Source: Verrucomicrobiota bacterium
GTDB lineage: Bacteria > Verrucomicrobiota > Verrucomicrobiia > Palsa-1439
Assembly (NCBI GenBank): GCA_037127585.1
Contig: JBAXYB010000004.1
Span: 4,022 to 68,021, forward strand
DNA: 64,000 nt
Direction: 5' to 3'
How positions within the stretch are numbered: the first letter of the stretch is position 1; the number at the start of each line of letters is the position of its first letter. The notes under the pieces are model-generated. The model saw nothing but the letters and a program-made list of their open reading frames with translations, searched no databases and was not told the origin of the DNA. Shown piece after piece: positions 5,706 to 49,869 of this stretch. A program made the translations under genes and the position numbers.

Positions 5706-5708
5706 GCC

Positions 5709-20589: not shown

Positions 20590-20803
20590 ATGTCCAAGTA
20601 TTGCGAGCTCTGACAGGTCTTGGTAGGATGTTGGTCGATGAATCTGCACCTCGACGAAACGATCCGCCGCAGACGCCCGATGAACGCGTCGAGACGTTGA
20701 TGGCTGCACTACGGGAGGTCGAAGCGCGCGGAATGTGGCCGAGGATTGATCGCAAAGCTAAGGAGCAGCGCATTATTCAGGGCCTTCATGCTGCTCGGAT
20801 TGC

Positions 20804-21001
20804 CCGGAAGAAATCGGCGTGCAGTTGACCGAAGGATTCATACTGAACCCGGGAATCGAGCGACGAGGGCAGTAGCGAGATGACGTTGTGTCGTTTCAAC
20901 GCCCGAAGGGTGTTGCGCGCGGGAGCGAGCAACATCAACCCAGCGTCAGCGCACTCGTGTTTCACCACCCCGATTGCGCGTACTTCGGCGTCGAGACGTA
21001 A
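20804..21001 (+). pseudogene. degenerate second copy of the metH 3' end
   Basis: It reads CCGGAAGAAATCGGCGTGCAGTTGACCGAAGGATTCAT...GTGTTTCACCACCCCGATTGCGCGTACTTCGGCGTCGAGACGTAA. This parallels the metH terminus (EEIGVQLTEGFMMDP...VFHHTDCAYFGVGDTGE*) with an internal indel of about 100 bp. Confidence 0.6.
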
Positions 21002-21041
21002 CGGAATAAACCACAGAGGCACAGGGGTCGCAGAGTCGTTG

Positions 21042-21066
21042 GTAGGGACGGCTCGCCGAGCCGTCC
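21042..21066. repeat. single REP unit (GTAGGGACGGCTCGCCGAGCCGTCC)
   Basis: GTAG is followed by a perfect 10-nt hairpin, about 55 bp upstream of the TA operon. Confidence 0.5.
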
Positions 21067-21119: not shown

Positions 21120-21302
21120 ATGGCTACGGCAAACATCAAGGCTGACTTGAAAGAGATTGCGGAGCACTTACCGGTGACGTCTTCCTACACGGATGCGATG
21201 TACGAGTTGTCCTTTCGCATGAAGATTACCCACGCGAAGCAGGCCGCCAATGAAGGCCGGGTTATCCCTCACGCGGAAGTGAAGCGAGGATTTCACCTAT
21301 GA
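21120..21302 (+). CDS. small antitoxin-like protein, a diverged member of the same family as the next gene
   Basis: The 60-aa ORF overlaps the next ORF by 4 nt. Its C-terminus (...EGRVIPHAEVKRGF) resembles the conserved C-terminus of putative addiction-module antitoxins. Confidence 0.35.
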   Translation: MATANIKADLKEIAEHLPVTSSYTDAMYELSFRMKITHAKQAANEGRVIPHAEVKRGFHL

Positions 21303-21532
21303 GCAAATCGGAGATTCTGAGCGAATTGCCGAACCTCAGCGCCAAGGAACGACGGGAGATTCTCGACAGTCTCTTGCAGCTTGAGGGCGCAGGCTGGCTG
21401 GATGCGGCTGATCTCACCGACGAAGAACGCCAACTCATCGAATCCCGTCTCGAAGCTCATCGCCAGAATCCTGACGCTGCCATCCCATGGGAAGACGTCG
21501 AAGCGAAACTGATCGCACGCTTCGGCAAATGA
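21299..21532 (+). CDS. type II antitoxin (putative addiction module component family)
   Basis: MSKSEILSELPNLSAKERREILDSLLQL...AAIPWEDVEAKLIARFGK matches the pattern of unstable-antitoxin families. The ORF overlaps the ParE gene by 4 nt. Confidence 0.6.
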   Translation: MSKSEILSELPNLSAKERREILDSLLQLEGAGWLDAADLTDEERQLIESRLEAHRQNPDAAIPWEDVEAKLIARFGK

Positions 21533-21840
21533 GCTACCGGCTCAACGCCCGTCCTGAAGTTTCTCCAGACATTCTCGAGGCCGCCGATTGGTACGAACGT
21601 CAGCAACCGGACTTGGGCGCGGACTTTGTCCGTGAAGTCCGACACAGTATCCAATCACTGCGCGTCAATCCCTTGCTGTACCGGATTCGACATGCAAAAT
21701 GGCGCGTCCGGTGGGTACTACTCCATCGCTTCCCGTATCAAATTGTCTTCGTCGTCGATGGTGAACTGATTACGATTCTTGCCGTGATGCACGCCAAGCG
21801 ACATGACCGCCACTGGCGTGAACGAGCGAAAGCCGGATGA
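21529..21840 (+). CDS. parE: ParE/RelE-family toxin
   Basis: The ATG at 21529 opens MSYRLNARPEVSPDILEAADWYERQQPDLGADFVREV...YRIRHAKWRVRWVLLHRFPYQIVFVVDGELITILAVMHAKR, a ParE fold pattern. Confidence 0.65.
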   Translation: MSYRLNARPEVSPDILEAADWYERQQPDLGADFVREVRHSIQSLRVNPLLYRIRHAKWRVRWVLLHRFPYQIVFVVDGELITILAVMHAKRHDRHWRERAKAG

Positions 21841-21890
21841 GCCGCCTCCGAATATTTCTTAAGCGCTTGCCCCGAATCCTTTTCGGGGTC

Positions 21891-21953
21891 AGCGCGCTGG
21901 TGTTCCATCACACGGATTGCAACTATTTTGGCGTGGGTGATGTAGGCGATTAA
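21891..21953 (+). pseudogene. third copy of the metH 3' end (SALVFHHTDCNYFGVGDVGD*)
   Basis: It is nearly identical at the peptide level to the metH terminus SALVFHHTDCAYFGVGDTGE*, and sits immediately after the parE stop. Confidence 0.65.
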
Positions 21954-22028
21954 GATAGGCACGGGCTTGTGCCAACTGAAGTTTTCACAATCAGTCTAAT
22001 TTCTTCATGTGCGAGGCGATCTTGCATA

Positions 22029-22139
22029 GTGTCCTAATCTGGACCGACGTTGTAGCCGAAGCGTGAGCTTCGGGCGTCAGCATGCGAATCCCGAAGCTCA
22101 CGCTTCGGCTACAGGAAAGGCTGGGAGAAATTAGGACAC
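22029..22139. repeat. nested REPIN: two identical units (TGTAGCCGAAGCGTGAGCTTCGGG) inverted, inside an outer GTGTCCTAAT/ATTAGGACAC inverted repeat
   Basis: The inner arms lie at 22051-22074 and 22090-22113, and the outer arms at 22029-22038 and 22130-22139. Confidence 0.6.
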
Positions 22140-22183
22140 CACCGGGAGTTGCAATCGAAGTTCCCGACCACTAAAGTCCACGC

Positions 22184-22666
22184 ATGAAACTGAATCTGCT
22201 CTCGTTCACTACTTCCCTGGCTTTCTGCCTGATCGTCCTGACTTCGGCGTGCGCGAAGAGTGACGAGGCTTCGAATTCGAACGCACCGGCGCAAGCGCCG
22301 GCCAAAACTGAGCCGGCCAAACCGGCGACGGAGGTTAAGGTGACCGAGTTGAAAACTGAAGAGATCAAGGTCGGGACCGGCGCAGAAGCCGTGGCCGGCA
22401 AGACTGTGTCGGTGCATTACACCGGCTGGCTGGTGGACGGGACGAAGTTTGATTCGTCGAAAGATCGCGGGCAGCCGTTTAGTTTCCCGCTCGGCGGCGG
22501 GCGGGTCATCAAAGGTTGGGATCAAGGCGTGGCCGGCATGAAAGTCGGCGGGACGCGCAAGCTCACCATCCCGGCCAGCCTCGGCTACGGCGACCGGGGT
22601 GCTGGCGGCATTATTCCTCCCGGCGCGACGCTGGTATTCGAGGTCGAGTTACTCGGCGTGAATTGA
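22184..22666 (+). CDS. FKBP-type peptidyl-prolyl cis-trans isomerase, likely a lipoprotein
   Basis: Lipobox LTSAC; FKBP motifs [14 protein letters not shown] and [27 protein letters not shown]. Confidence 0.8.
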
Positions 22667-22673
22667 ACCGGCG

Positions 22674-23573
22674 TTAGACTTCCGTCGCGACCCAGTGACC
22701 GGGTTCGGCTTCCCGCCAATCAACCGGCTTGTCTTGAACGCGGCGCCGCGCTTCTTCTGGCGAAATATCATCGAGCACAATCCGTTGCCGGCGCCGGGCG
22801 GGGTCGATGTCCGGGACCGCCGACAGTAACGCTTGCGTGTAACGATGCAGCGGGTTCGAGTAAATCTGCTCGGCACTGGCTTCCTCGACGATTTTGCCAA
22901 AATACATCACCAGCACGCGGTCGCTGATGTGTTCGACAACCGCTAAGTCGTGCGCCACGAAAAGATAAGTGAGCTTGAATTTTTCCTGGAGGTCTTGCAG
23001 GAGATTGATGATCTGCGCTTGGACGCTGACGTCGAGCGCACTCACCGGCTCGTCGCAGACGATGAACTTCGGTTGCACCGCCAATGCGCGGGCAATGCCG
23101 ATGCGTTGACGCTGGCCGCCGCTGAACTCATGCGGATACCGGCGCGCGTGCTCGGGGGCGAGGCCGACCGACTTCAACAAGTCAGCAACCCGGTCGCGCT
23201 CTTCCGCTTTGCCGGTGCAGAGTTTGTGAATGCGGAGCGGTTCGGCGATGATGTTGCCGACGGTCATGCGCGGGTTGAGCGAACCGTACGGGTCTTGGAA
23301 AATCATCTGCGCTTGCCGGCGAAAGGCGCGCATGTCGGTGATGGGTTGACCGGCAAATTGGACTTCGCCGGCAGTCGGTTCGATCAACTGGAGGATTGTG
23401 CGCCCGAGGGTTGTTTTGCCGCAGCCAGACTCGCCAACCAGACCGACGCACTCGCCTTCATTGATGGCGAACGACACGCCGTCGACTGCTCGCACCCAGC
23501 CGACCGGACGTTGCAGGATGCCGGCTTTGATGGGGAAATGCGTCTTGAGATCTTTGACTTGGACGAGGCTCAC
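22674..23573 (-). CDS. oppF: oligopeptide/dipeptide ABC transporter ATP-binding protein (OppF-type)
   Basis: Walker [10 protein letters not shown], the LSGGQRQR signature, and the C-terminal oligopeptide-ABC extension are present. A GTG start overlaps the oppD stop. Confidence 0.8.
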
Positions 23574-24520
23574 AGTTTCTCCCAGTAGGGACAGCGAACG
23601 TTGTCGATTAACTGCGGCTCGGGGTCGCGCGAGCAATCCGGTTGGACGCGGTCGCAGCGCGGGGCGAATTTGCAGCCCGCCGGTAGACGCGCAGCGCTCG
23701 GGACTGTGCCCGGGATGGATTGCAGCCGGGCAGCGCGTTCGCCGAGACGTGGAATGGAACGCATCAGTGCGGCGGTGTAGGGATGGCGGGGATTCTTGAG
23801 CAGTTCGGCAGATGGTGATTGTTCGACGACGCGGCCGGCGTACATGACGCAGACGTTGTCGGCAATGTCGCCCACGATGCCGAGGTTGTGGGTGATGAGC
23901 AGGATGCTCATGCCGATCTCGCGTTTCAGATCTCTGAGCAAGTCGAGAATCTGCGCTTGAATGGTCACGTCGAGCGCGGTGGTCGGTTCGTCGGCGACGA
24001 GCAAGGCCGGGTTGCAGGCGAGGCCCATCGCGATCATGACGCGTTGTTGCATGCCGCCGCTGAGTTGATGCGGGTAATCGCGCAGTCGCCGCTCGGGGTC
24101 CGGGATGCGGACGAGTTTCAAAAGGCGGACGACTTCGGCATCGGTTGCGGCCTCGGGCCGGTGGAGTTGGAGTACTTCCTTGATTTGATAGCCGATGCGG
24201 AAGACCGGGTTGAGCGAGGTGGCCGGCTCTTGAAAGATGTAGGAGATCTTCGCGCCGCGAATCGCGCGCAGCCGGTGTTTGTCCATCTTCAAAACGTCTT
24301 CACCGTCGAGGAGGACTTCGCCGCCTTTGTAAACGCCGGGCGGTGTGGCGACCAGTTTACCGAGCGCCAAGGCCGTCACGCTTTTGCCGCAACCGGATTC
24401 GCCGACGAGCGCGAGGGTCTCGCCTTTCTTGATCGCGAACGAAACGCCGTCGACAGCGCGGACTTCGCCTTCGTCGGTGAAGAAGCTGATTTGTAAGTTT
24501 TTGACTTCGAGCAGGCTCAT
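23570..24520 (-). CDS. oppD: oligopeptide/dipeptide ABC transporter ATP-binding protein (OppD-type)
   Basis: The N-terminus is [13 protein letters not shown], with Walker [10 protein letters not shown] and the LSGGMQQR signature. Confidence 0.8.
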
Positions 24521-25464
24521 TTGGTTTCCGCTGTTCGGAGTTTGGGGTCGAGGGCGTCGCGCAGGGCGTCGCCGAACAGGTTCAAGGCGAGCACGAGAAA
24601 GAACATGGCGGCGGTCGCGCCGGCCAGTTCCCACCAGTTCCCGAGCCAGAGGCGTTGTTTGGAGTCGTTGATGATCGCGCCCCAGCTCGGTTCGTTGGCG
24701 ATCCCGACGCCGAGGTAACTGAGCACGGCTTCGGTCAGAATCAAGCCCGGGAAGCGCAACGAGAAGTTGATGATGATCAAGTGCGCGACGTTGGGCGCGA
24801 TGTGCCGGAACATGATGGCGGTATCACTCACGCCGAGTGACCGGGCCGCGAGGACATACTGGCGTTCCCGGTGTTTCATGTATTCGGCGCGAATGAGCCG
24901 GCACAAGCCAACCCAGCCGGTAAAGCCCATGCCGACGCAGACGGCGAAGAGACCGCTGTCGACATACCGGGTGATGAATTGAAAGATTTCGTTGCGGTCA
25001 ACGGCGCTGCGCACCACGTAGGCGATGGCCATGATGAGCAGGATGCCGGGGACGGAGTCCACCACGGAGTAGAGATAAACGACGACCGTATCTACCTTCC
25101 GGCCAAAGTAGCCGGCCACGGCGCCGAGCGCGAAGCCGAGCGGGATGACGATGAACGACGTCAGCAGTCCGATCTCAAATGCGATGCGCGTGCCTTGGAT
25201 GATCTGGCTCAGATTGTCGCGACCGGCGAAGTTGGTGCCGAGGGGGTGCGCCGGCGACGGCGGGTGGTTGCGAATGTCGTAGTTGGATTCTTTGTACTGG
25301 GGCGTGACACCGCGCAGGCGGGCGTTCCAGAACGTTACTTCGGCATACATCCAGACAGCCGTATACGCGGCCAAGATCGCGAGACAGAGCAACGCGAGTT
25401 TGTTGCGGCGCAGTTGCCGCCAGGCGATGGACCACAAACCGGGATTGTTGGTTGCGTCGCTCAT
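24517..25464 (-). CDS. oppC: ABC transporter permease (OppC-type)
   Basis: A multi-pass membrane protein with the EAA-like motif region of the BPD_transp_1 family. The start is uncertain, either 25464 (MSDATNN) or 25491. Confidence 0.75.
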
Positions 25465-26405
25465 TTGAGTCGGATGCGCGGATCGGCCCACGTGTAGGCG
25501 ATGTCGGTGGCGAGGTTGGCGACAACAAAGATGACCGAGCCGATGAAGGTGGTGGCGAAGATCACGTCTTCGTCGCCATTGAAGAGGGCATTGACGGTGA
25601 GCCGCCCGAGACCGGGAATGCCGAAGAAGTTTTCGAGCAGCAATGCGCCGGTATAGAGGAACGGGATGGCGACGATGACGTTGGTGAGGATCGGGATCAT
25701 GGCGTTGCGCAGGACATGCCGGAACAGGACGGTCCGCCCCGAAACGCCTTTGGCGCGGGCGGTGCGGACGTAATCCTGGTTCATCTCATCGAGCATCACC
25801 GTGCGGTAGAAGCGGACGCTGCCGCCGACTCCCGCGACGACGCCGATCAGCACCGGCAACACCAAGTATTGTGGGCCTTCAAATCCCCAGACTGGGAAGA
25901 GCCGCCATTCACTGGCGAGCCAGAATTGCGCGACCATGATGTAGACGAGCGAACTGATGCTCATCGCCATGACGGCGAGAACGACCAGGCTCCGGTCAAT
26001 CCATGCGTTCCGGTAATACGCCGCCAACAGCGCGAGCACAATCGCCAGCACCGTCTCGATGACGAACAGCGGCGTGGTGACACAGAGCGACGGCAGCAGT
26101 CCTTCGCGCAGCATGGTGCTGACGCGTTGTTTGGTGGTGATGGATTCGCCGAAATCAAGCCGCACCAGTTGGCCGCAGAGCCGCGGGAATTGGGCGTCGA
26201 ACGGATTGGAGAGATTCAGGAAGAGCGGTTTGTCGTAGCCGCGTTCTTTGCTGATCTGAGCGATACGGGCGGGAGTGGCATTCTTGCCGGCGATGCGGTA
26301 GGCGGGGTTGCCGCCGATGACGCGGAAGAGGAAGAACGTGATGAGCAGGACGCCGAGCGTGATTGGAATCACGGAAACTAGCCGGCGGATGATGTAGGCA
26401 ACCAT
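25461..26405 (-). CDS. oppB: ABC transporter permease (OppB-type)
   Basis: The N-terminus MVAYIIRRLVSVIPITLGVLLITFFLF is the canonical OppB/DppB form. Confidence 0.8.
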   Translation of the reverse strand: MVAYIIRRLVSVIPITLGVLLITFFLFRVIGGNPAYRIAGKNATPARIAQISKERGYDKPLFLNLSNPFDAQFPRLCGQLVRLDFGESITTKQRVSTMLREGLLPSLCVTTPLFVIETVLAIVLALLAAYYRNAWIDRSLVVLAVMAMSISSLVYIMVAQFWLASEWRLFPVWGFEGPQYLVLPVLIGVVAGVGGSVRFYRTVMLDEMNQDYVRTARAKGVSGRTVLFRHVLRNAMIPILTNVIVAIPFLYTGALLLENFFGIPGLGRLTVNALFNGDEDVIFATTFIGSVIFVVANLATDIAYTWADPRIRLK

Positions 26406-26411
26406 GGTCGT

Positions 26412-28154
26412 TCAGTGCGGCAAGACTTTGTAATACTTCCAGTTGGCGTATGGGAAGGCGTGTTGTTTGTAGTTCTGAAACCACGGCTGAAATAATCCAT
26501 AGGACAGCGGGTATGTCATCAACGCCCATACGCAGTCGTCGACCACGATGTCAGCCATTTTTTCGTAAAGCGCGGTGCGTTCGGGGGAATCCGGCATGGA
26601 CACGATTTGATCGTAGAGTTTGTCGAAGGCCGGATTTTGGTAATTGGTGGCGTTGACGCCGGGGCATTTGTTGGGGCCGTAGAAAAGTTGGAGGAGATTT
26701 TGCGCGTCCGGATAGTCGATCACCCAAACGGCCCAGAAGATCTGCGTTTCGCCTTCGTGTTCGCGACGGAGGTATTCGGAGCCGGCCAGTTGTTGGACGA
26801 CAAGATCGACGCCGATGGCGCGGAGTTGTTCGGTGTAGAAATCCGCTGCTTGCCGGACATCGGTGCTGCCGGCGCCGGGCATGATCATCGTGAGTCGCAA
26901 TTGCCGGCCTTGGTCATCCTTGCCGCCGGGGTAACCGGCTTCGGCCAAGAGTTGCTTGGCGCGAGCGAGATTGAATTGGTAGGGATACGGCTTGGCGACG
27001 TGACCGGCGATGCCGGGCGGGATTGGCGAAGTGGCGGGAGTGTGGCGGTTGTTGGTAATGACTTCGACGTAACGCGGCACATTGACGGCGGTGGCGAATG
27101 CTTGCCGGAGTTTCTTATTCTTGCCGACGACCGGGTCGAGCATGTTGAAACCGAGATAGTAGATGTCGAGCAGCGGCGCTTTCAGGAGGCGGATGCCGCG
27201 CTGTTTGAGCGTATCCGTCAGTTCGAGTTGCGGGTCGATGACTTTCTCGAAGTAATCTTTGTTGATGCCGGCGGAGAACAATTGGCCGCCGAGAAACATC
27301 TGCCACGTCGTGTAATACTCGCGAATGTCGTACTCCACGATCCGGTCCACCAAGGGCAACGGCTTACCGGCATCGGCCAGCAGTCCCGCCGCCCGGTCGT
27401 TCGCGTCGCCGGTGTCTGGGTATGTCTGGCCGCTGAAAGTCGGATTGCGTTCGAACTCGATCCGGTAATTGCGCCGCCAGGCTTTCAGGCGGAACGGGCC
27501 GGTGCCGACCGGGTGATTGCGGAATTCCGCCCCGTAGAAATCCACCGCTTCGCGCGGCAAGACGAACGTGTACTGCATCGTCAGCACCCAGAGAAGTTGC
27601 GGATAGGGCCGGTGGAGTTTGATCTGGAGCGTGTATTTGTCGAGCGCTTGAAAGCCGGGAATCGGGTCGCTGTAGTCCACGGCGGCCTTCGCATCTGCCC
27701 ACTTTTTGACCCAATCTTCCGCACCGAGGACGTGGTTGACGAACAGCCAGTCGCCCGCCGATTGCAGGCGCGGATTCAACACGCGTTTCCAGGAGTAGAC
27801 GAAATCGTCGGCGGTCACCTCGCGTCCCTTGCCGCCGGGGAAACACTTGTCGTCCGGGAAACGCACGCCGGGTTTAAGCTTGAAGGTGTACGTCAGGCCG
27901 TCCGCCGCAACTTCCGGCATGGCCGCGGCCAACCTTGGGATGACATGATACGGGCGATCCAAATAAGAATACTCAAGCAACCCTTCGTAGACCCGCCCCA
28001 CTTGGTCAGCGGACTCCACGTCGTTGGCGTCCACCGGGTCGAAACCCTTGAAGTCACCCCCGGTGCCATACAGCACCGTCTCCGCCGCGCCGCCGGCCGC
28101 CGATGCCAGCGTCGTTAAGACGACGAGCGCAAGCACGCAGCGGCGAGCTGTCAT
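26412..28154 (-). CDS. oppA: ABC transporter substrate-binding protein, family 5 (peptide/nickel type)
   Basis: A signal peptide precedes a periplasmic solute-binding protein of about 560 aa, encoded at the head of the permease/ATPase genes. Confidence 0.8.
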   Translation of the reverse strand: MTARRCVLALVVLTTLASAAGGAAETVLYGTGGDFKGFDPVDANDVESADQVGRVYEGLLEYSYLDRPYHVIPRLAAAMPEVAADGLTYTFKLKPGVRFPDDKCFPGGKGREVTADDFVYSWKRVLNPRLQSAGDWLFVNHVLGAEDWVKKWADAKAAVDYSDPIPGFQALDKYTLQIKLHRPYPQLLWVLTMQYTFVLPREAVDFYGAEFRNHPVGTGPFRLKAWRRNYRIEFERNPTFSGQTYPDTGDANDRAAGLLADAGKPLPLVDRIVEYDIREYYTTWQMFLGGQLFSAGINKDYFEKVIDPQLELTDTLKQRGIRLLKAPLLDIYYLGFNMLDPVVGKNKKLRQAFATAVNVPRYVEVITNNRHTPATSPIPPGIAGHVAKPYPYQFNLARAKQLLAEAGYPGGKDDQGRQLRLTMIMPGAGSTDVRQAADFYTEQLRAIGVDLVVQQLAGSEYLRREHEGETQIFWAVWVIDYPDAQNLLQLFYGPNKCPGVNATNYQNPAFDKLYDQIVSMPDSPERTALYEKMADIVVDDCVWALMTYPLSYGLFQPWFQNYKQHAFPYANWKYYKVLPH

Positions 28155-28546
28155 TTTTCAGGAGCAGGGGCGGGTTGCGGCGTAGCAGCCGGCAGGGCTG
28201 GCGCAATGGGGGCGGCCGTGCCGGAGTTCGGCATCGGGAACGCCGGCGCACTCGCCGGGGCGACGGGAGCATTCTTAATCGCCTTCTCCATCAACGACTC
28301 ATTGCCGCTGCGCCGGGAATGCAGCACCGCCAAAATCAACGTCGTCCCCAGCATGATCGACGCGCACCAGATCGTGATCCGCACCAGGGCTGTGGTCGTA
28401 CCGGCGCCGAAGACGGACTCGGTCATCCCGCCGCCGAAGGCCGCGCCGACACCTTGGTCTTGCGACTTTTGCATCAAGACCAACACAATTAAAATCAGCG
28501 CCACGATCACGTGGACGGTTGTCAATAATCCAATCAATATGTTCAT
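28151..28546 (-). CDS. secG: preprotein translocase subunit SecG
   Basis: MNILIGLLTTVHVIVALILIVLVLMQ...GGG is a SecG transmembrane pair with the Gly-rich loop. The gene is downstream of tpiA as in many bacteria. Confidence 0.75.
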   Translation of the reverse strand: MNILIGLLTTVHVIVALILIVLVLMQKSQDQGVGAAFGGGMTESVFGAGTTTALVRITIWCASIMLGTTLILAVLHSRRSGNESLMEKAIKNAPVAPASAPAFPMPNSGTAAPIAPALPAATPQPAPAPEK

Positions 28547-28579
28547 ATTTTTTCTTAATCCTAATCTTACTCCTACTCT

Positions 28580-29344
28580 TTACGCTGCTGCTGCTTTCAC
28601 GATTGCCGAGAAATCCGCGGCTTTCAACGCCGCCCCGCCCACCAGCGCACCGTCGATGTCCGGCTGGCTGAGCAACTCCTTCGCATTATCCGGCTTCACG
28701 CTACCACCGTATTGAATGCGAACTTTTTCTGCCGCATCGCCGAAAAGTTCCTTCAACAACTGACGGATCAACGCATGCACTTCTTGCGCTTGCGCCGGGG
28801 ACGCTGTTTTACCGGTGCCGATGGCCCAGACCGGTTCGTAGGCGATGACGGTGGCGAGAATATCATCTTTACTGAATCCGGCAAGGCTGCCGCGCACCTG
28901 CCCGGCCACCACGGCTTCCGTCTGACCGGCTTCGCGGTCGGCCAACATCTCGCCGACGCAGACAATGGGGTGCAATCCGTTGGCCAACGCCGCTTTCGCG
29001 CGCTTGTTCACGCCGGCATCGGTCTCGCCGAAGAACTGCCGGCGTTCGCTGTGACCGACAATGGCGTACCGGACGCCGTGCTCTTTGAGCATGGCCGGCG
29101 CAATCTCGCCGGTAAACGCGCCTTCTTTTTCCCAGTGAACGTTCTGCGAACCGAGCTGAATGTTCGAGCCGGCAATTGCCGCGTTGATAGCCGGTAAGGA
29201 GATAGCGGTCGGGCAGACGACAATTTCGGCTTTGGTGATGCCGGCAACTTCCGCTTTGAGGGCGTTGACGAGCGCGACGCCTTCGGCGGACGTCTTATAC
29301 ATCTTCCAGTTACCGGCGATGATGGGTTTACGATTGGTATTCAT
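28580..29344 (-). CDS. tpiA: triosephosphate isomerase
   Basis: AGNWKMY, the catalytic His region GHSERR, and [11 protein letters not shown] are all present. Confidence 0.9.
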
Positions 29345-30546
29345 TTGTCAGATAGCGCCGCCACGCCGGGAAGAACTTTGCCTTCGAGGAATTCCAGCGA
29401 TGCGCCGCCGCCGGTACTCATGAAACTCATTTCTTTCGCGAGACCGGCAGCCTTCACAGCCTTCGCGCTGTCGCCGCCGCCGATGATGGTGGTCGCGCCG
29501 TTCTTGGTCGCTTGCGCGACGGCTTTGGCGATTTCAAATGTGCCTTTGGCGAAATCCGGGATCTCGAACACGCCCATCGGGCCGTTCCAGACGATGGTCT
29601 TGGCCTTGGCGATTTCCTTTTTGTAGGTCTCGATCGTCGCGGCGCCGATGTCCACGCCTTCCCAACCGTCCTCGATGCTCGGGCCATCGGTGTTGCGAGT
29701 GGGCGCGCCGGCTTTGAATTCGGTGGTCTGGAGTTGGTCTTCCGGCAGGAAGAACTTTTTGCCCTTGGCTTTTTCGAGGAGCGATTTGGCGAGGTCGATC
29801 TTGTCGTGTTCGCACAGCGACTTACCGACGCTGTAGCCTTGCGCTTTGCGGAACGTGTACGCCATCGCGCCGCCGATTAGAATGACGTCGGCAATGTTGA
29901 GGAGGTTTTCGATGACTTTGATTTTGTCAGAAACTTTCGCGCCGCCGAGGATGCAGAGGAGCGGACGGGCTGGATTGGAGATGACGCCGCCGAGATACTT
30001 GAGTTCTTTCTCCATGAGAAAGCCGGCCGCTGCTTTGCCGCCGCGCTTCTTGACGATCTCCGCGACCGCTGCGGTTGAAGCGTGGGCGCGATGCGCGGTG
30101 CCGAACGCGTCGTTGACGTAGATGTCCACGTTGGCCGCCAGTTTCTCGGCGAACCCGGCATCGTTCTTTTCTTCTTCGGCGTAGAACCGGAGGTTCTCCA
30201 ACAACAGAATGTCACCGGGCTGGAGGATGGCTTTGGTCTTCTCGACCTTGTCGCCAATGCAATCGTCCACGAACGCGACCGGCCGGGCCAGAAGTTCGGC
30301 CAGCCGTTGGGCGCAGGGGCGCAGCGACTGCTTAGGATCGCGCTTGCCTTTGGGGCGACCGAGGTGCGAACCGAGGATGACACGCGCGCCGTTCTGCCAA
30401 AGGTATTCGAGCGTCGGGACAGTCGCTTTGATGCGCTTGTCGTCGGTGATCGCGCCGGCATCGTCGAGCGGCACGTTGTAGTCGACGCGGACAAAGAACG
30501 TCTTGCCGCGGAAATCTTTTACGTCATGTAATGATAGCTTCGCCAT
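29341..30546 (-). CDS. pgk: phosphoglycerate kinase
   Basis: RVDYNVPLD, the N-terminal domain motifs, GGGA...NGPMGVFE, and the length of about 400 aa match Pgk. Confidence 0.9.
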
Positions 30547-30629
30547 AGTAATTAGCTCCGGTCACAAACGAGGTCTGGGGAGAGTAGCGATTCAGGCCCG
30601 GCAGTCAATGGAAAAGCCGCGCGCGGCGA

Positions 30630-31001
30630 CTAGTCGTTGAGCCACGCCCGAGCGGCGGGCTCATCCGCAAAGAATTGCAACTGCAACGGGTGCAACTGCA
30701 CATCCTTCAACACGAATTCCACCATCATGCGTTTGAAACCCGACGGAATCACCACCGCCCATTTCTTGAGAGCATTCGGGGCCTGCGCGGTCATTTCCAA
30801 CAGACGTTTGGCATCCGGCAATTCACTCATGAGCGGCCCGCCGGCATCGGCCGCAACGGTGGTGAGCGTTTTGAGCGTGGGTTTGTAGCGGGGGTCGCGG
30901 TAGACCTCGGCGATATGCTGCTCCAAATCCGCGCAAGAATTTGAACCACTGATCTGCACCAAAATTAGTCCCTGCCCTTCGTCAATCGTGTACTCGATCA
31001 T
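30630..31001 (-). CDS. hypothetical protein (possibly STAS/SpoIIAA-like)
   Basis: A 123-aa ORF with no confident motif. It lies divergent from potA. Confidence 0.4.
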   Translation of the reverse strand: MIEYTIDEGQGLILVQISGSNSCADLEQHIAEVYRDPRYKPTLKTLTTVAADAGGPLMSELPDAKRLLEMTAQAPNALKKWAVVIPSGFKRMMVEFVLKDVQLHPLQLQFFADEPAARAWLND

Positions 31002-31137
31002 GCCGGCCTTTCTAGCCGCGCCCGCCGGTCAACGTCAAGCTTCCGGTCCGACACCGCGAGCGGCTCAAAAATTATTGTCGCGCGGCCGGTGGCTTCTGTT
31101 ATCTTCAGACGTCACACAGTTCCGGCCCGAGTGCATC

Positions 31138-32217
31138 ATGGCAACACAGACCCCTGCGATTGAAGTGGAGAATCTGGTGCGGCAGTTCGGCGATATGTTA
31201 GCGCTGGACCACGTCAGCGTCAGTATCCGGAAAGGCGAATTTTTCTCCCTGCTCGGCCCGTCGGGCTGCGGCAAGACCACCCTGCTCCGCTGCATCGGCG
31301 GCCTCGACATCCCGGATGACGGCGTGATTCGCATTGGCGGCACCGATGCGAAGGAGATCCCGGCGCACAAACGGCCCGTTAACACTGTCTTTCAATCGTA
31401 CGCGCTGTTCCCCCATTTGAGTGTGCGCGACAACATCGCGTTCGGCTTGCGCATGAAAAAGGTGGCAAAGCCGGAGATTGAAGACCGGGTCAAGCGCGTC
31501 CTCGACATGGTCCAGATCACCCAATTGGCCGACCGTAAACCCGGCCAGCTCTCCGGCGGTCAGAAACAACGCGTCGCCCTCGCCCGCGCCATCGTCAACG
31601 AGCCGAGCGTGCTCCTGCTTGATGAGCCGCTCGGCGCGCTCGACATGAAACTGCGGAAGGAGCTGCAGATCGAGTTATTGGCGCTGCAACGGCGGCTGGG
31701 CATCACCTTTATCTATGTGACGCACGATCAGGAAGAGGCGTTGGTGATGAGCGACCGGATCGCCGTCATGCGCGCTGGCAAAATTGAGCAAATGGGCGAA
31801 GCCGAAGCCATCTACGAACATCCGCACACCCGGTACGTCAGCACCTTCCTGGGTTCGTGCAATCTAATCGACGCAACGGTCCGGCAACGCACGGCGACCG
31901 GGGCGCTCGTGCAAAGTGCAGTCGGTGAACTGCGCGTGGAAGCAACCATCCCGGCCCGCGATAAATTCACGCTCGCCATCCGCCCGGAGAAAGTCACGTT
32001 GTGCGCGCCGAGCGAGTGCGCCGGTGAGAATCGCATCAAAGTTAAAGTGGCTGAAGTCATTTATATCGGCTCGGAAACGCATTATGTCCTGAAGGCCGGT
32101 GAGCAGACGCTCTCGGCGGAAACGATGAACGTCAAAGTCGGCCGCCAAGGTTTTGATATCGGCCAGGAGGCAATTGTGTATTTGCCGGCGGCCGGTCTGT
32201 TGGTGTTGGATGATTAA
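31138..32217 (+). CDS. potA: spermidine/putrescine ABC transporter ATP-binding protein
   Basis: Walker A GPSGCGKTT, the LSGGQKQRVALARA signature, and a C-terminal TOBE/MOP-like domain are present. Confidence 0.85.
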   Translation: MATQTPAIEVENLVRQFGDMLALDHVSVSIRKGEFFSLLGPSGCGKTTLLRCIGGLDIPDDGVIRIGGTDAKEIPAHKRPVNTVFQSYALFPHLSVRDNIAFGLRMKKVAKPEIEDRVKRVLDMVQITQLADRKPGQLSGGQKQRVALARAIVNEPSVLLLDEPLGALDMKLRKELQIELLALQRRLGITFIYVTHDQEEALVMSDRIAVMRAGKIEQMGEAEAIYEHPHTRYVSTFLGSCNLIDATVRQRTATGALVQSAVGELRVEATIPARDKFTLAIRPEKVTLCAPSECAGENRIKVKVAEVIYIGSETHYVLKAGEQTLSAETMNVKVGRQGFDIGQEAIVYLPAAGLLVLDD

Positions 32218-32367
32218 ATTGAGACAGCGATTGGAGAAGGCGGCAGTTTGTAGGGCGCGATGCCCCGTGTCGTTTCGGAGTATCGCGCCGCGAGGAGAGT
32301 CCAGCAATGATCACGGCGCGATACCTAAACGACAGGCATCGCGCCCTACAATTAGCGCGCTTGCCGC

Positions 32368-33288
32368 ATGAAATCTTCCCGCCCAGGCGAAGTTCGATTC
32401 GGCGAGCAACTCAGCGCGCGGGGGCAACTGTACCGGTCGGCCACGACCAGCGGGCCGAGCATCGTGTGGGTCACGATTTTTCTGTTGCTGCCATTGGTGG
32501 GGATTGGCGTCATCAGCTTTCTGTCGCGCGGCGAATCCGGCGGGTACGAGCTACCGTTTACCTTTACTAACTACACGCGCTTTGCCGGTTGGGGTTTTTT
32601 TGGGTATGACATTTTGTATCCGCAGATCATTCTGCGCAGCATCGTGCTCGGCACCGGTACGGCGGCGCTCTGTACGTTGGCGGCATTGCCGCTGGCGTTT
32701 TTTATCGCGGCGTTACCGGGCCGGTACAAGAATCTGGCTCTGACACTCGTCTTGATTCCGTTTTGGACGAACCTCTTGATCCGCACGTACGCGTGGCAGA
32801 TTTTGCTCGCGCCGGAAAGCCCGATCACGTGGGTGGCGACCAAGCTGCATTTGATCGCCGCCGACGCACCGCTGTATCCGAGCGAGTTCGCGATTTATAT
32901 CGGCATGGTTTGCGATTATCTGCCGTTCCTTGTGTTGCCGTTGTATTCGTCGGTGGAGAAGATCGACTGGAGCATTGCCGAAGCGGCGAGCGATTTGGGG
33001 GCGGATGGGAAACGCGTGTTCTGGCATGCCATTTTGCCGCAGGTGATGCCGGGGTTGGTGGCGGGCGTGATTCTGGTGTTGATACCGGCGATGGGGCAGT
33101 TTGTGATCCCGGATTTGTTGGGCGGGGCGAAGACCGTGATGCTGGGGAATGCCATCCAGCAACAGTTTGGGCCGAGCCGGGATTGGCCGTTTGGGTCGGC
33201 GATCGCGTTTCTGGGAATGGCCGTGGTGCTGGTGAGCCTGTGGTTTTACGCGCGGTATGCCGGCGAGAAAGGCGGTGACATCTTATGA
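32368..33288 (+). CDS. potB: spermidine/putrescine ABC transporter permease
   Basis: A six-TM permease with the EAA motif region (AEAASDLGA). The true start may lie downstream of 32368. Confidence 0.75.
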   Translation: MKSSRPGEVRFGEQLSARGQLYRSATTSGPSIVWVTIFLLLPLVGIGVISFLSRGESGGYELPFTFTNYTRFAGWGFFGYDILYPQIILRSIVLGTGTAALCTLAALPLAFFIAALPGRYKNLALTLVLIPFWTNLLIRTYAWQILLAPESPITWVATKLHLIAADAPLYPSEFAIYIGMVCDYLPFLVLPLYSSVEKIDWSIAEAASDLGADGKRVFWHAILPQVMPGLVAGVILVLIPAMGQFVIPDLLGGAKTVMLGNAIQQQFGPSRDWPFGSAIAFLGMAVVLVSLWFYARYAGEKGGDIL

Positions 33289-34085
33289 GAAAGGTGTCGC
33301 TGCCGCTGTGGTTGCTGGCCGGGTTTCTGTACGTGTTCATGTACGCGCCGATCGTGGTGGTGATCGTCTTTTCGTTCAATGCCGCAAAACACGGGGGGCC
33401 GTGGACGGGGTTTACCACGGAATGGTACGCGAAGTTGCTCGACAGCCCGGATAAGCTCAAGGCCACGGAGAACACTGCCATCTTGGCGTTCGCGAGCACA
33501 ATCCTGGCGACGGTGCTCGGGACGATGTTGGGCTACGGCCTGAGCCGGTATTGGTTTCCGGGGAAGAAACTTTTTTCGCTCATGATGTATATTCCGGTCG
33601 TGATCCCGGACATTGTGATGGCGGTGGCGATGTTGTCATTTTACGCGTTGGTGCGAGATTGGCTTGGGCTGTTTGAACTGGGCATGACGACGATGATCAT
33701 CGCGCATATTACGTTTCAGATTCCGTTCGTCGCCATTGTGGTGCGGTCGCGGCTGGCTGGGATGGACCCGGCCATCGAGGAAGCGGCGCATGACTTGGGT
33801 GCGAGTTCGTGGCAGACGTTTTGGAATGTGACGTTCCCGCTGATGCTGCCGGGGGTGTTGGCGGGGGCGATGTTGGCTTTTACATTGAGTCTCGACGATT
33901 TTGTGGTTAGCTTCTTCACAACAGGACCCGGAGCGACGACATTGCCAATTCTGATTTACTCGTCGGTCAAACGCGGCATTACGCCGGACATCAACGCGTT
34001 GTCCACGTTGATCGTGCTGGCGTCCGTCATCGGAACCATCGGCGTGACGCTGTTGCAGCGTCCCGCCAAACACTCAGGAGGTTGA
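33285..34085 (+). CDS. potC: spermidine/putrescine ABC transporter permease
   Basis: A PotC-like permease (EEAAHDLGAS) that overlaps the potB stop. Confidence 0.8.
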   Translation: MRKVSLPLWLLAGFLYVFMYAPIVVVIVFSFNAAKHGGPWTGFTTEWYAKLLDSPDKLKATENTAILAFASTILATVLGTMLGYGLSRYWFPGKKLFSLMMYIPVVIPDIVMAVAMLSFYALVRDWLGLFELGMTTMIIAHITFQIPFVAIVVRSRLAGMDPAIEEAAHDLGASSWQTFWNVTFPLMLPGVLAGAMLAFTLSLDDFVVSFFTTGPGATTLPILIYSSVKRGITPDINALSTLIVLASVIGTIGVTLLQRPAKHSGG

Positions 34086-34086
34086 T

Positions 34087-35121
34087 ATGTTACAGCGTCT
34101 CGCCGTGATTGCGGTTGCGCTCTCGCTGACAGTTTCAGCGTGGGCTGCGAAGAACAAACTCAACGTGTACATCTGGAGCGAGTACATCGACCCGAAGATC
34201 ATCGAGCAGTTCTCGAAGGAATTCGACTGCGAGGTGACGGTCGATCTCTACGAAGACAACGAGAGCATGATGGCCAAACTCCAAGGCGGCGGCACCTCGC
34301 TCTACGACATCGTCGTCCCCTCGGACTACATCATCCCGGCGTTGATCAAAAACAGCTTACTCGCGCCGTTGCGGAAAGAAAACGTTCCAAACATGAAGAA
34401 CCTCGATCCCCAGTTCGCCGGCCGCGAATATGATGCCGGCAACAAATACACCGCGCCATACCAATGGGGTACCGTCGGCCTCTACGTCCGTCGAAAACCC
34501 GGCGAAACCATCGACGAAACGTGGGGCATCATCTTCGACCCGAAGAAATCCATCGGCTCGTTCCTGATTATTGACGACGCCCGGGCCGCCATCGGTGCCG
34601 CGCTCAAGTACAAGGGCTACAGCCTCAACACCACCGACAAGAAGCAACTGAAGGAAGCGCGCGATGTGCTTATCGAAGCCAAGAAGCGTTCCCTCGGCTT
34701 CGAAGGCGGCGTCGGCATCAAGAACAAGGTCCTCGCCAAAGTCTGCCGCGTCGGCATGGTCTACAACGGTGACGCCGTCCGTGGCACGAAGGAAGACAAG
34801 GACACCTATTACTTCGTCCCGCGCGAAGGCACCGAAATCTGGCTCGATAACCTCGCCATCCCGGCGAAAGCCCCGAATCGCGACATGGCCGAGAAGTTCA
34901 TCAACTACATCCTCGACGCGAAGATCGGCGCCCAACTCTCGAACTTCAATCAGTACCCCACGCCCAACCTAGCCGCCAAAGAGCTCATCAATCCGGCCGA
35001 TCTCAAGAACACTGCCATCTACCCCAGCGCGGAGCAGATGAAGACGCTGGAGTTCGTCAAAGACCTCGGCTCGAAGACCGGCTGGTACGACGAACTCTGG
35101 ACCGGTATCAAATCCAAATAA
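34087..35121 (+). CDS. potD: spermidine/putrescine-binding periplasmic protein
   Basis: A signal peptide precedes an SBP_bac_1 fold. LNVYIWSEYIDP is the typical PotD/PotF N-terminal motif. Confidence 0.8.
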   Translation: MLQRLAVIAVALSLTVSAWAAKNKLNVYIWSEYIDPKIIEQFSKEFDCEVTVDLYEDNESMMAKLQGGGTSLYDIVVPSDYIIPALIKNSLLAPLRKENVPNMKNLDPQFAGREYDAGNKYTAPYQWGTVGLYVRRKPGETIDETWGIIFDPKKSIGSFLIIDDARAAIGAALKYKGYSLNTTDKKQLKEARDVLIEAKKRSLGFEGGVGIKNKVLAKVCRVGMVYNGDAVRGTKEDKDTYYFVPREGTEIWLDNLAIPAKAPNRDMAEKFINYILDAKIGAQLSNFNQYPTPNLAAKELINPADLKNTAIYPSAEQMKTLEFVKDLGSKTGWYDELWTGIKSK

Positions 35122-35143
35122 TCACCCCCACGTCAGGAGCGAT

Positions 35144-36493
35144 ATGCCTCAAGACCTCACCGCGGCGCACAAGAAATCTGCCTACGTCCTCGATCTGATC
35201 AGCAAAAAAGAACTCTCGCTCGCCGAACGCAAACGCGTCATCAAAGAGTCCGTCAAGTATTGGGCCGACCACGTCAACGCCGGCTTCCTCAAATACCGGA
35301 AATCCGTCAGCACCGACTACACCGCCGTCGAATGGTCCGACGAAGGCGCATGCTTCAAAGACATCAACGGCAAAGAATTCATCGACATGCTCGGCGGCTT
35401 CGGCATCTACGTCACCGGCCACCGCCACCCGAAAGTCCTGAAAGCCGTCCTCGACCAACTCAAACGCCAAGGCATCCACTCCCAAGAACTCATCGACCCG
35501 CTCCGTACCTACCTCGCCCACCTCGTCGCACTCATCACGCCGGGCGATCTTCAATTCGCCTTCCTCACCAACAGCGGCACCGAGTCCATCGAAGGCTGCC
35601 TCAAAATGGCCGTGGCCACTACCGGCCGCCACAAATTCATCGGCATGCTCGGAGGTTTCCACGGCAAGAGCATGGGCTCGCTCGGCGGCACCTCGAAAGC
35701 CATCTTCCGCGAACCATTCCTCCCGCTCCAAAACTGGACCCACGTCCCGTTCGGCGACGTTGACTCCCTCAAGATGATCATGGCCAGTTGCGATTTTAGT
35801 GGCGACCGCGTCGCTGCCGTCGTCATCGAACCCATCCAAGGCGAAGGCGGCATCAACGTCGCCCCGCCCGGCTTCCTCGCCGCCGCCCGCGAACTCTGCG
35901 ACAAATACGGCGCCATGCTCGTGTTCGACGAAATCCAATGCGGCATGGGCCGCACCGGCAAAATGTTCTACTGCGAACACGACGGCGTCGTCCCCGACCT
36001 CATGGCACTCGGCAAAGGCTTCGGTGGCGGCGTCATGCCCATCGGCGCGACCGTCGGCACCCCGAAGACCTGGGAAAAATACATCGAGAACCCATTCCTC
36101 CACACCACCACTTTCGGCGGCAACCCCGTTTGCTGCGCTGCCGCCATCGCCACCATCAACGTCCTCCTCGAAGAAGACTTGCCGGCGCAAGCCGCCAAGA
36201 AAGGCGATTACCTCCTCAAAAACATCAACGCCCTCGCCAAGAAATACTCAAAGGTCTTGAAACTCTGCCGCGGCAAAGGCCTCATGCTCGGCATGGAATT
36301 CACCAACGACGAACTCGGCTACGAAGTCGCCAAAAACCTTTTCGCCCGGCAAATCCTCATCAGCGGCACCTACATCAACGCCCGCGTCCTCCGCATCGAA
36401 CCGCCGCTCGTCATCCCGCAAGCCCAACTCGACCGGTTCCTCGAAATGCTCGAAGAATCGCTCAAGCAAGTTTACAAAGCCCACAAACTCTGA
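35144..36493 (+). CDS. class-III PLP aminotransferase, likely putrescine:2-oxoglutarate aminotransferase
   Basis: FDEIQCGMGRTGKMF (PLP-lysine context) and an LGKGFGGG-type motif are present in a 449-aa protein. It lies immediately downstream of potABCD, so the putrescine specificity is inferred from context. Confidence 0.65.
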   Translation: MPQDLTAAHKKSAYVLDLISKKELSLAERKRVIKESVKYWADHVNAGFLKYRKSVSTDYTAVEWSDEGACFKDINGKEFIDMLGGFGIYVTGHRHPKVLKAVLDQLKRQGIHSQELIDPLRTYLAHLVALITPGDLQFAFLTNSGTESIEGCLKMAVATTGRHKFIGMLGGFHGKSMGSLGGTSKAIFREPFLPLQNWTHVPFGDVDSLKMIMASCDFSGDRVAAVVIEPIQGEGGINVAPPGFLAAARELCDKYGAMLVFDEIQCGMGRTGKMFYCEHDGVVPDLMALGKGFGGGVMPIGATVGTPKTWEKYIENPFLHTTTFGGNPVCCAAAIATINVLLEEDLPAQAAKKGDYLLKNINALAKKYSKVLKLCRGKGLMLGMEFTNDELGYEVAKNLFARQILISGTYINARVLRIEPPLVIPQAQLDRFLEMLEESLKQVYKAHKL

Positions 36494-36496
36494 CGC

Positions 36497-36661
36497 GTGC
36501 AACCCTTCGCCGCCATCGACTGTCCGCACTGTGGCGAAAAATTCACGCTCGCCATTGACCCTAGCGAAGACGACGCGGAGTTTGTCATCGACTGTGAAAT
36601 TTGTTGCCGGCCGATGACGGTTACTGTCCACGACGGAGAAGTCCATGCCGTTGCCGATTGA
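36497..36661 (+). CDS. CPXCG-type zinc-ribbon small protein (54 aa), absent from the supplied ORF track
   Basis: A GTG start 3 nt after the aminotransferase stop opens VQPFAAIDCPHCGEKFTLAIDPSEDDAEFVIDCEICCRPMTVTVHDGEVHAVAD*, with CPHCG and CEICC motifs. Confidence 0.5.
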   Translation: MQPFAAIDCPHCGEKFTLAIDPSEDDAEFVIDCEICCRPMTVTVHDGEVHAVAD

Positions 36662-36720
36662 ACAAGCCTCCTACTGGCTCGCCACCCGGCCACCCCCGAA
36701 TCCGTCCCGCTAACCGGCAC
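36660..36720 (+). repeat. displaced partial copy of the 5' end of the downstream FAD-oxidoreductase gene; left direct repeat of TA cassette 2
   Basis: GAACAAGCCTCCTACTGGCTCGCCACCCGGCC-CCCCGAATCCGTCCCGCT compares with 37382-37440, which reads GAACAAGCCTCCTACTGGCTCGCCACCCGGCCTCCCCATGAATCCGTCCCGCT. The identity is about 90% and the left copy is frame-shifted. Confidence 0.65.
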
Positions 36721-36757
36721 CCTTCGCGCCAATAATCCTATTTCGGAGTCCCGTCGT

Positions 36758-37048
36758 TTACGTCAGCCGCTGTCTGATCCAAGTCGGATTCCGGCGGCAG
36801 TCCAGTACGGCATTGACGTGAACAGTGTCGCCGGTCACGGTGTAGTAGATGGCAAATGGAAAACGCTTGGATAGGCAGCGCTGCTGGCCGAAAACGATTG
36901 AGTGAATGCCAGCATACAGTTGCAGCGAATCGATGTCGGAAAACAGGCAGTCAAGAAAGTAGTTACCAAGACCAAGTTCTTGTTTCTCGTAGAAACAGAA
37001 ACCGTCAATCAGGTCGTGCCGCGCATCGTCGTGAATCTCAACTCTCAC
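36758..37048 (-). CDS. parE: ParE/RelE-family toxin
   Basis: MRVEIHDDARHDLIDGFCFYEKQELGLGNYFLDCLFSDIDSLQLYAGIHSIVFGQQ...YYTVTGDTVHVNAVLDCRR matches the ParE pattern (...Y.....I.V.RVLH..RD). Confidence 0.65.
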   Translation of the reverse strand: MRVEIHDDARHDLIDGFCFYEKQELGLGNYFLDCLFSDIDSLQLYAGIHSIVFGQQRCLSKRFPFAIYYTVTGDTVHVNAVLDCRRNPTWIRQRLT

Positions 37049-37260
37049 GACACTTGGCGGCGGAGGTCAACCTTGGCCGATTCCCACGAGGTGTATCCCG
37101 CCTTGCCTTCGGCGACCCGGTTCTGTCGCTGCTCCAGCACTTCCTTGTGCCATGCCGGAGATTCGACGGCTTCGGGTGTGCGCGATAAGTCCTCCCACAA
37201 GGCTTCCATCGCGGCGAGCTTCTCTGCCAGAGTCATTTCTTTCAACGCCAGCGTTGTCAT
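37045..37260 (-). CDS. type II antitoxin (putative addiction-module component)
   Basis: The ATG at 37260 opens MTTLALKEMTLAEKLAAMEALWEDLS...SWESAKVDLRRQVS. A 4-nt overlap links it to the toxin gene. Confidence 0.55.
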   Translation of the reverse strand: MTTLALKEMTLAEKLAAMEALWEDLSRTPEAVESPAWHKEVLEQRQNRVAEGKAGYTSWESAKVDLRRQVS

Positions 37261-37369
37261 GGCCAAACTATACCGTGGCCGGCCGGAATTGCCAATCTGA
37301 ACGTCCCGACATGAATAAAAAGTTATTACGCCGCGCCTCACTCCATCCTGGCTGTGCTAAACTGTTCCC

Positions 37370-38746: not shown

Positions 38747-38801
38747 GATGAAACTGCGCAGCCCGGCTAAGAACCCATCCCAAAACGTCCCGATCCATTT
38801 T

Positions 38802-38879
38802 CCGGGAGGGCGAGGCTCCCGCCGAGCCGTGGGGTGACGTGGCTCGGCGGGAGCCTCGCCCTCCCCCGGTTTTGGGATC
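38802..38879. repeat. family-A palindrome (CCGGGAGGGCGAGGCTCCCGCCGAGCCG - 10-nt loop - reverse complement)
   Basis: The arms are near-perfect 28-nt sequences, and the flanks (cccaaaac...gatcc / ggttttgggatcgg) are themselves partly complementary. Confidence 0.65.
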
Positions 38880-39011
38880 GGCTCTAAGCCGTCGCCACGA
38901 TGCGTTCCATCGCAGCTTCTTGCTGCTCGATGGATTCAACAAGCCGAAACTGGGTCCGCGCCCGGTCGAGGTTGTGCCCGTCCCGATGCGTCTTGAAATA
39001 CGTGTCACCGT

Positions 39012-39953: not shown

Positions 39954-40059
39954 GGCCTCGACCGGGGCGCAGTGTGGCCGGCGCCGGCAACTCTGTCAAG
40001 TCGGCGACGTATTCCGCCCCACGTTGACTTGCCGGCGGCTGAAGTTTATAACCGCTCGC

Positions 40060-40533: not shown

Positions 40534-40574
40534 GCCGTTGCGCACTTTGGCCGCGCGGTTTATAGTGCCCCCCA

Positions 40575-49844: not shown

Positions 49845-49869
49845 ACCAATGCCGGTATCGGAAACCGGC

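Follow-up and report, generated by a model that had tools for sequence, protein, structure and literature searches.

Duplicated, diverged gene termini around two toxin-antitoxin cassettes suggest a homology-anchored route of insertion in a Verrucomicrobiota genome

A 64,000-nucleotide stretch of contig JBAXYB010000004.1 from a Verrucomicrobiota bacterium (assembly GCA_037127585.1; this whole stretch is hereafter the window) carries two small toxin-antitoxin (TA) cassettes, each with a copy of the terminus of an adjacent conserved gene on either side. Cassette 1 (antitoxin AT1, toxin Tox1) follows metH, the gene for B12-dependent methionine synthase, and cassette 2 (AT2, Tox2) lies ahead of FADox, which encodes a FAD-dependent oxidoreductase. 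The reading we favour, and hold to be probable by a modest degree, is that each cassette arrived by recombination that used the terminus of the adjacent conserved gene as a homology handle. The kinds of system combined here, TA islets and homology-driven additive transfer, are both known; what is new is a variant of these.

Results

Duplicated termini flank both cassettes

Both ends of ~45 genes (~90 termini) were compared with the adjoining 2.5 kb and scored as z values against shuffles. Only the termini of metH (z = 25.7) and FADox (z = 16.4) proved to be duplicated, the next best value being 4.0, and a window-wide repeat scan detected no other local direct repeat, at least 30 nt long and non-paralogous, at a gene terminus. 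A sequence-only reading of the window had already placed both cassettes inside duplicated gene termini, and in this it was right; it had seen two copies of the metH 3' end, of which the window holds three. The geometry is alike at both loci: working terminus, ~110 nt, antitoxin, toxin, 40–48 nt, displaced terminus.

Locus 1, metH and cassette 1:
16945–20589, + strand: metH, B12-dependent methionine synthase (open reading frame, ORF; the homologue in contig L117 has all MetH Pfam domains)
20519–20589, + strand: terminal ~70 nt of metH, a surrogate, non-orthologous 3' end by comparison with contig L025
20524–20589, + strand: in-gene end of metH (repeat copy 1), 21 codons and stop
20628–20825, + strand: segA, a small conserved ORF between metH ends 1 and 2, with a homologous ORF at 620–856 of L025
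20804–20852, + strand: metH end copy 2a, matching metH 20467–20515
20853–20944: 92-nt insert splitting metH copy 2 and containing a small hairpin, CAACGCCCGAAGGGTGTTG
20945–20999, + strand: metH end copy 2b, in frame, its own stop three codons earlier than in the in-gene end
21010–21066: repetitive extragenic palindrome (REP)-like sequence after the surrogate stop, a ACCACAGAGGCACAG motif with the GC-rich palindrome GGGACGGCTCGCCGAGCCGTCC; one occurrence in the window
21120–21302, + strand: orf60, 60 aa, overlapping the AT1 start by ATGA
21299–21532, + strand: AT1, antitoxin 1 (PF09720 / TIGR02574)
21529–21840, + strand: Tox1, toxin 1 of the ParE family (PF05016), sharing ATGA with AT1
21863–21895: hairpin with core CCCCGAATCCTTTTCGGGG at 21870–21888, directly abutting metH copy 3; unique in the window
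21888–21953, + strand: metH end copy 3, displaced, in frame, covering the same 21 codons and stop as the in-gene end

Locus 2, FADox and cassette 2:
36497–36661: small CPXCG zinc-ribbon gene, flanking cassette 2 on the Tox2 side
36645–36718, + strand: displaced pseudo-5' end of FADox, overlapping the CPXCG stop (36661), with a 1-nt frameshift
36758–37048, − strand: Tox2, ParE-like toxin 2 (by alignment to Tox1 and by cluster names)
37045–37260, − strand: AT2, antitoxin 2 (PF09720), sharing GTGA with Tox2
37267–37295, − strand: sigma-70-like promoter TTGGCA-17-TATAGT before AT2, from a consensus scan and conserved in contig L103
37370–38746, + strand: FADox, FAD-dependent oxidoreductase (DAO; PF01266, 202 bits), its first ~72 nt being the working repeat copy

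The copies differ in a manner that speaks for their origin. Among the metH ends the proportion of synonymous differences (pS) is 0.72–0.92 and that of nonsynonymous differences (pN) 0.05–0.13, the reading frame being retained throughout; copy 3 differs from the in-gene end with pS 0.89 and pN 0.11 and has its stop at the equal codon position. The first 24 codons of FADox (37376–37441) recur at 36654–36718 with 93% and 88% identity and one 1-nt deletion, and the four substitutions between these 5'-end copies are all synonymous (pS 0.15–0.30, pN 0). In-place decay is excluded by a pS near saturation with the protein preserved; the copies are best read as ends of diverged functional alleles that were joined by horizontal transfer, each of which would until recently have been a working metH or FADox end in a different lineage.

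Further evidence comes from metagenome contigs gathered by a scan with the metH C-terminus and by look-up of toxin homologues. Against the closest of them, L025, the window's metH matches at 49 of 50 nt up to position 20518 and then at only 41 of 70 (59%) to the stop; the metH end in use is therefore not orthologous and has been replaced. Among 13 copies compared over 16 codons, the in-gene end of the window is the outlier, and the displaced copies behind the related cassettes of L025, L117 and the window resemble one another at 85–88%, again over 16 codons; the phylogenetic placement used 48-nt end copies, which are too short for firm conclusions beyond the outlying position of the in-gene end. 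Taken together, a pS far above pN, a non-orthologous in-gene end and a clean 197-nt duplication in L117 are what mark the insert as flanked by a duplicated gene segment from donor and recipient alleles, the signature of homology-anchored integration.

The metH locus in other contigs

The same pattern recurs at metH in independent contigs, with varied cargo. In L117 and L118, metH is followed by orf60 (3075–3257 in L117, upstream of the AT1'/Tox1' pair as in the window), an antitoxin, a ParE toxin 72% identical to Tox1 and then an intact second metH end, which comprises the last 65 codons (197 nt, ~85% identity, changes nearly all synonymous) and is annotated publicly as a Met_synt_B12 fragment. 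L109–L112 read metH, antitoxin, ParE (77%), decayed end copy and then the FKBP gene, which also follows cassette 1 in the window. L025 has metH, a segA-like ORF, an orf60-like gene (888–1067) upstream of a truncated unrelated ParE (PF05016, 35.3 bits), a hairpin, an end copy interrupted by 84 nt as copy 2 of the window is, and a DUF433/DUF5615 pair. Between two metH ends lies a HicA/HicB pair in L032; L038 has 1.6 kb of non-TA cargo and then a metH fragment of ~95 codons; and in L058 two metH ends enclose only REP-like sequence, an empty unit. The displaced copies do not share one left edge: four or more registers occur (197 nt in L117, ~66 nt in the window, another register in L032, ~95 codons in L038). 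The gap between metH and FKBP is a variable hot spot.

Several further observations concern this hot spot. In L024 (7033–7643 and 8325–8892) it holds an HTH_3 antitoxin with a RelE (PF06296) toxin, and a DUF433/DUF5615 pair follows FKBP; L026–L029 also show a variable gap, with two large ORFs in L026 (6528–8930) that may be defence genes judging by their sequence. The metH genes of L032 (159–1913) and L058 (16–939) carry an in-frame insert, 'CHSERSEESHNVSETLP...AQGDTS', which we take to resemble a small repeat element widespread among soil bacteria.

Within the window, metH copy 2 is split by an insert with an ordinary fold (20853–20944; z −1.7); the copy is split in like manner in L025 (1419–1616), where an insert of the same 84–92-nt class occupies the identical position (~1459–1546). 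No Pfam match was obtained for segA and no family match for orf60. The latter looks like the orphan antitoxin of an older cassette into which the present AT1–Tox1 pair was inserted. At 22051–22113, past metH copy 3 and ahead of the FKBP gene, a perfect inverted repeat of 24 nt, its arms 15 nt apart, is probably a terminator or REP; an Rfam scan of locus 1 gave only sub-threshold noise from microRNA models, on this repeat, and consensus promoter and terminator scans found none at cassette 1.

Locus 2 in relatives and toxin homologues elsewhere

In L103 (JAJVHY01, the closest genome) the AT2/Tox2 pair is likewise divergent from FADox, and similarity to the window ends ~8 nt past the toxin stop. 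Third-position identity between the two is 0.64 for FADox, 0.75 for the aminotransferase gene, 0.74 for Tox2 and 0.875 for AT2, and thus cassette 2 has occupied this site since roughly the time when the two lineages parted. L103 also has an unrelated NOV_C-domain gene that separates the Tox2 homologue from the CPXCG gene (5223–6053) and a 174-nt insert in the antitoxin–FADox spacer (3506–3788). In the more distant L115 and L116, polyamine-transporter genes, the aminotransferase gene and FADox are contiguous, with a 6-nt aminotransferase–FADox gap and no TA pair; cassette 2 thus splits an operon, and an upstream region of its own accompanies the working FADox copy. A search for empty sites among GTDB representatives, with an oligopeptide-binding protein as query, returned one close relative (L005/L103; the closest GTDB relatives are Verrucomicrobiia metagenome-assembled genomes). 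Its synteny is broken at both cassettes, with no clean empty metH site, and for FADox an empty site was found only in the distant L115/L116.

Elsewhere the toxins travel without the footprint. No significant flank duplication was found around a Tox2 homologue (83%) between nuoN and aroE in L104 or a Tox1 homologue (68%) after sucD in L119, and the test was also negative for the cassette of L106. The window itself offers a third TA pair, vapBC (1617–2281), which consists of a 77-aa antitoxin candidate and a PIN/VapC toxin (PF01850, 61.9 bits) after a quinone-oxidoreductase-like gene and is followed by a GNAT-like gene fragment (2294–2485); a 25-nt, 76% repeat of the last 8 codons of its upstream gene (1540–1564 versus 2461–2485) is not significant. 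The expectation of the sequence-only reading that cassettes in general would show duplicated flanks thus failed at L104, L119 and vapBC. Its broader proposal, that the duplication comes from the insertion mechanism of the cassette, stands in part: the duplication is tied to the route of arrival, as the diverged alleles and the recurrence at metH in independent contigs indicate, but it is not a property of the cassette type, since it also surrounds HicAB (L032), another ParE with orf60 (L025), non-TA cargo (L038) and almost nothing (L058). A footprint that occurs with varied cargo and is missing around close toxin homologues follows the recombination route at the locus, not the antitoxin family.

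Two anciently related type II cassettes

Both pairs are predicted type II TA operons by gene layout, the antitoxin lying directly upstream of the toxin with the 4-nt overlap (ATGA, GTGA) that had been noticed before; the order is kept in L103, L106, L109, L117 and L119. The assignment of both antitoxins to one family also held, as AT1 (28.8 bits) and AT2 (54.8 bits) pass the Pfam gathering cut-off of PF09720 (23.3); for TIGR02574 (cut-off 31.9) AT1 passes at 34.2 bits and AT2 stays below at 16.0. Tox1 matches PF05016 (ParE_toxin) with 38.5 bits (cut-off 23) over profile positions 6–87 of 89; of its 30 homologues, all but two short fragments (57 and 63 aa) carry PF05016. Tox2 has no Pfam match at E ≤ 1 and no NCBIfam match, and lies outside the current PF05016 profile; its ParE/RelE-like nature, likewise proposed earlier, is supported by a full-length BLASTP alignment to Tox1 (26% identity, E 2e-11) and by the RelE/ParE name that public sources give to its cluster of 2381 homologues. 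Exact matches of both toxins are recorded at NCBI as 'RelE/ParE family toxin'.

Kinship goes no closer. The sequence-only reading had derived a likely shared origin from the common antitoxin family and had named distantly related toxins as the result that would speak against it; the alignments returned exactly this, with 26% identity between the toxins and, between AT1 and AT2, no similarity on which a pairwise alignment could be built. Because of this divergence, the two cassettes appear to be independent and related only anciently, with no shared recent origin.

Recurrent sequences at the junctions

The hairpin abutting metH copy 3 folds as DNA with −13.8 kcal/mol (z −3.6). Its 19-nt form, CCCCGAWTCCTWWTCGGGG, occurs as 7 unique instances across the 1.14 Mb of retrieved DNA, and in 4 of these it abuts a displaced metH fragment; it is one-sided only and absent at locus 2, L032 and L117. 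An IS200/IS605-type origin, or one from a miniature inverted-repeat transposable element (MITE), was set aside, as such elements do not duplicate 60–200 nt of target.

Relatives of the REP-like sequence lie 3' of the metH stops in L025, L058 and L109. A motif ACCACAGAGRCACAG with the same palindrome follows surrogate metH stops in the window (within the REP-like sequence), in L025 (~566–600) and in L058 (~940–975), and related GC-rich repeats of the 'ARRAVPT/EPRPP' type are present at other places in the window, such as the starts of ORFs 42612–45602 and 63330–63998.

Away from both loci, positions 38800–41100 and 48500–50350 have low third-position GC and contain ORFs without a Pfam match (39784–40809, 48567–48923, 49125–49499). 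These stretches, which adjoin an FHA-domain ORF (49617–49844), may be further accessory DNA.

Discussion

A homology-anchored route

The favoured scheme starts from incoming DNA of a diverged relative that would have carried a copy of the gene end together with the cassette. Integration could proceed in the Campbell manner, with one crossover of a fragment that had circularised, or through one homologous and one illegitimate junction (homology-facilitated illegitimate recombination, HFIR). The product would be the gene body, an imported surrogate terminus by which the gene stays complete, the cassette and the displaced resident terminus. Lying between two copies of a conserved gene end, the cassette could then loop out and re-enter any genome having the gene, which would explain why three or more lineages have the same cassette at metH, why the displaced copies are alike and why units pile up in tandem; the addictive TA pair would then resist loss. 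The direction of import, circular intermediates and RecA dependence are steps that we infer. The varied left edges of the displaced copies fit homology or microhomology better than a single attachment (att) core. In Escherichia coli, when a circular molecule bearing a gene-end segment recombined by one crossover, the insert came to be flanked by 109–950 bp duplications of the lacZ end (PMC3240628), and in Photorhabdus TA islets have been proposed to spread via homologous recombination at flanking core genes (PMC13617665).

Several points weigh against this scheme. A 66-nt arm at ~80% identity is a poor RecA substrate, and neither a circular form nor a donor genome was observed. At locus 2, L103 has no pseudo-5' FADox copy beside its cassette, and the pseudo-copy of the window is 91% identical to the window's own gene, the L103 gene being 78%; the duplication is therefore younger than the residence of cassette 2. 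The direction of import is also ambiguous there, as either FADox copy could be the imported one. At metH, breakpoints cluster within ~6 nt of CCGGAAGC^ATCGG (~20516–20524): the in-gene breakpoint relative to L025, the left edges of copies 2b and 3, and the second L058 hairpin. To judge from these positions the clustering looks site-specific, and the hairpin CCCCGAWTCCTWWTCGGGG adjoins displaced fragments, once each in the window and L025 and at two places in L058. Some of the clustered junctions may descend from a single event. The site is palindrome-like and has CCG..TCGG in common with the hairpin, and the clustering could be due either to microhomology or to a recombinase directed by the hairpin.

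Alternative explanations

The same clustering, together with a hairpin that is rare away from displaced metH fragments and with units in tandem array as in the accretion of integrative elements, lends weight to a site-specific origin, which we regard as possible though unlikely. The cassettes would then be integrase-less remnants or satellites, comparable to cis-mobilizable elements (CIMEs), that target the metH 3' and FADox 5' ends with surrogate termini in attP, or else, within the same estimate, modules moved by a recombinase acting on the REP-like hairpin or palindrome as on Tn3 res-like or dif-like sites; in Photorhabdus a ParE/RelE operon is flanked by a duplicated 24-bp res-like palindrome (PMC13617665). 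Against this, a Pfam search that included the unassigned ORFs of the window revealed no recombinase near either cassette, and no integrase or transposase is among the top families, in the matches listed, of 130 ORFs downstream of metH at 80 loci. The metH copies have no identical core in common (longest shared block 16 nt), so that both the cis integrase and the identical att cores of site-specific integrative elements and CIMEs are missing; boundaries differ among L117, the window, L032 and L038, and the hairpin stands on one side and is not found at every locus. A related idea, distinctly less likely still, is that the metH-end repeats and the REP-like hairpin form a dedicated cassette-capture site, with an unlinked recombinase recognising CCGGAAGC^ATCGG and the cassette-end hairpin. 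Units with their own surrogate metH terminus would be inserted and excised, giving an integron-like array without a cis integrase and with mainly TA cargo. Of integron cassettes proper the loci show little: the 19-nt hairpin is the sole recurrent structure, with no Rfam match above noise and no integrase.

It is very unlikely that both cassettes are closely related forms of a single mobile ParE/PF09720 element whose own insertion duplicates gene ends, as the sequence-only reading had it. The shared Pfam antitoxin family, homologous toxins and common geometry agree with one element; the depth of the toxin and antitoxin divergence does not, nor do the footprints around HicAB and non-TA cargo, the close homologues of both toxins in other contexts without a footprint, or copies that are diverged alleles and not fresh target-site duplications. 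Least credible of all, and hardly to be entertained, is local tandem duplication of gene ends with subsequent decay, or chance similarity, unrelated to the cassettes. Slippage can give short direct repeats and the FADox pseudo-copy does carry a frameshift, but z values of 16–26 against shuffles at only two of ~90 termini, and the same pattern in independent contigs, argue otherwise, and a pS near saturation with pN near 0.05–0.1 is impossible by neutral decay in place.

Relation to known systems

Integrative elements that supply a surrogate gene terminus include islands targeting tRNA and tmRNA genes and SXT/R391 in the prfC 5' end, and their integrase-less derivatives are the CIMEs. The loci described here resemble them in that an end brought by the element keeps the target gene whole, the native end is displaced to the far side and units accrete in tandem; they differ in having no integrase, no shared identical core, variable boundaries and units of only 0.4–0.9 kb. 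TA gene cassettes of chromosomal integrons and the pdif modules of Acinetobacter plasmids are discrete TA units in arrays between repeated recombination sites. Here, too, TA pairs form discrete arrayed units separated by repeats, but no attC- or dif-like site, IntI or linked Xer gene was found at these loci, and the repeat is the metH end.

Closest to the favoured homology-anchored scheme are Campbell-type integration and HFIR, with which it shares one homologous anchor in the resident gene, a gene-end duplication flanking the insert and no need of a dedicated recombinase. Unlike those, the present case consists of natural footprints only, with arms ~20% diverged and down to 66 nt, repeated into a tandem array with a REP-like hairpin at several junctions. 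The TA islets of Photorhabdus (Belot et al. 2026, PMC13617665) are likewise small lone ParE/RelE-type operons in variable spots between core genes. In one Photorhabdus case the palindrome is duplicated on both sides, whereas here it stands on one side only, and that work describes no duplicated, allelically diverged gene termini, whereas here the repeat is coding sequence of the neighbour gene.

Implications

It has long been asked by what means chromosomal TA operons spread when they lack transposases and integrases, and these loci keep a readable footprint of one route. Such an insertion can also rewire a host gene: FADox has been severed from a polyamine-uptake operon and has acquired a new 5' end and upstream region. 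If the pattern is general, synonymously diverged duplicated gene termini could serve as a simple genomic marker for dating and counting TA acquisitions, and could mark both recombination hot spots, such as the metH–FKBP gap in soil Verrucomicrobia, and the donor lineages.

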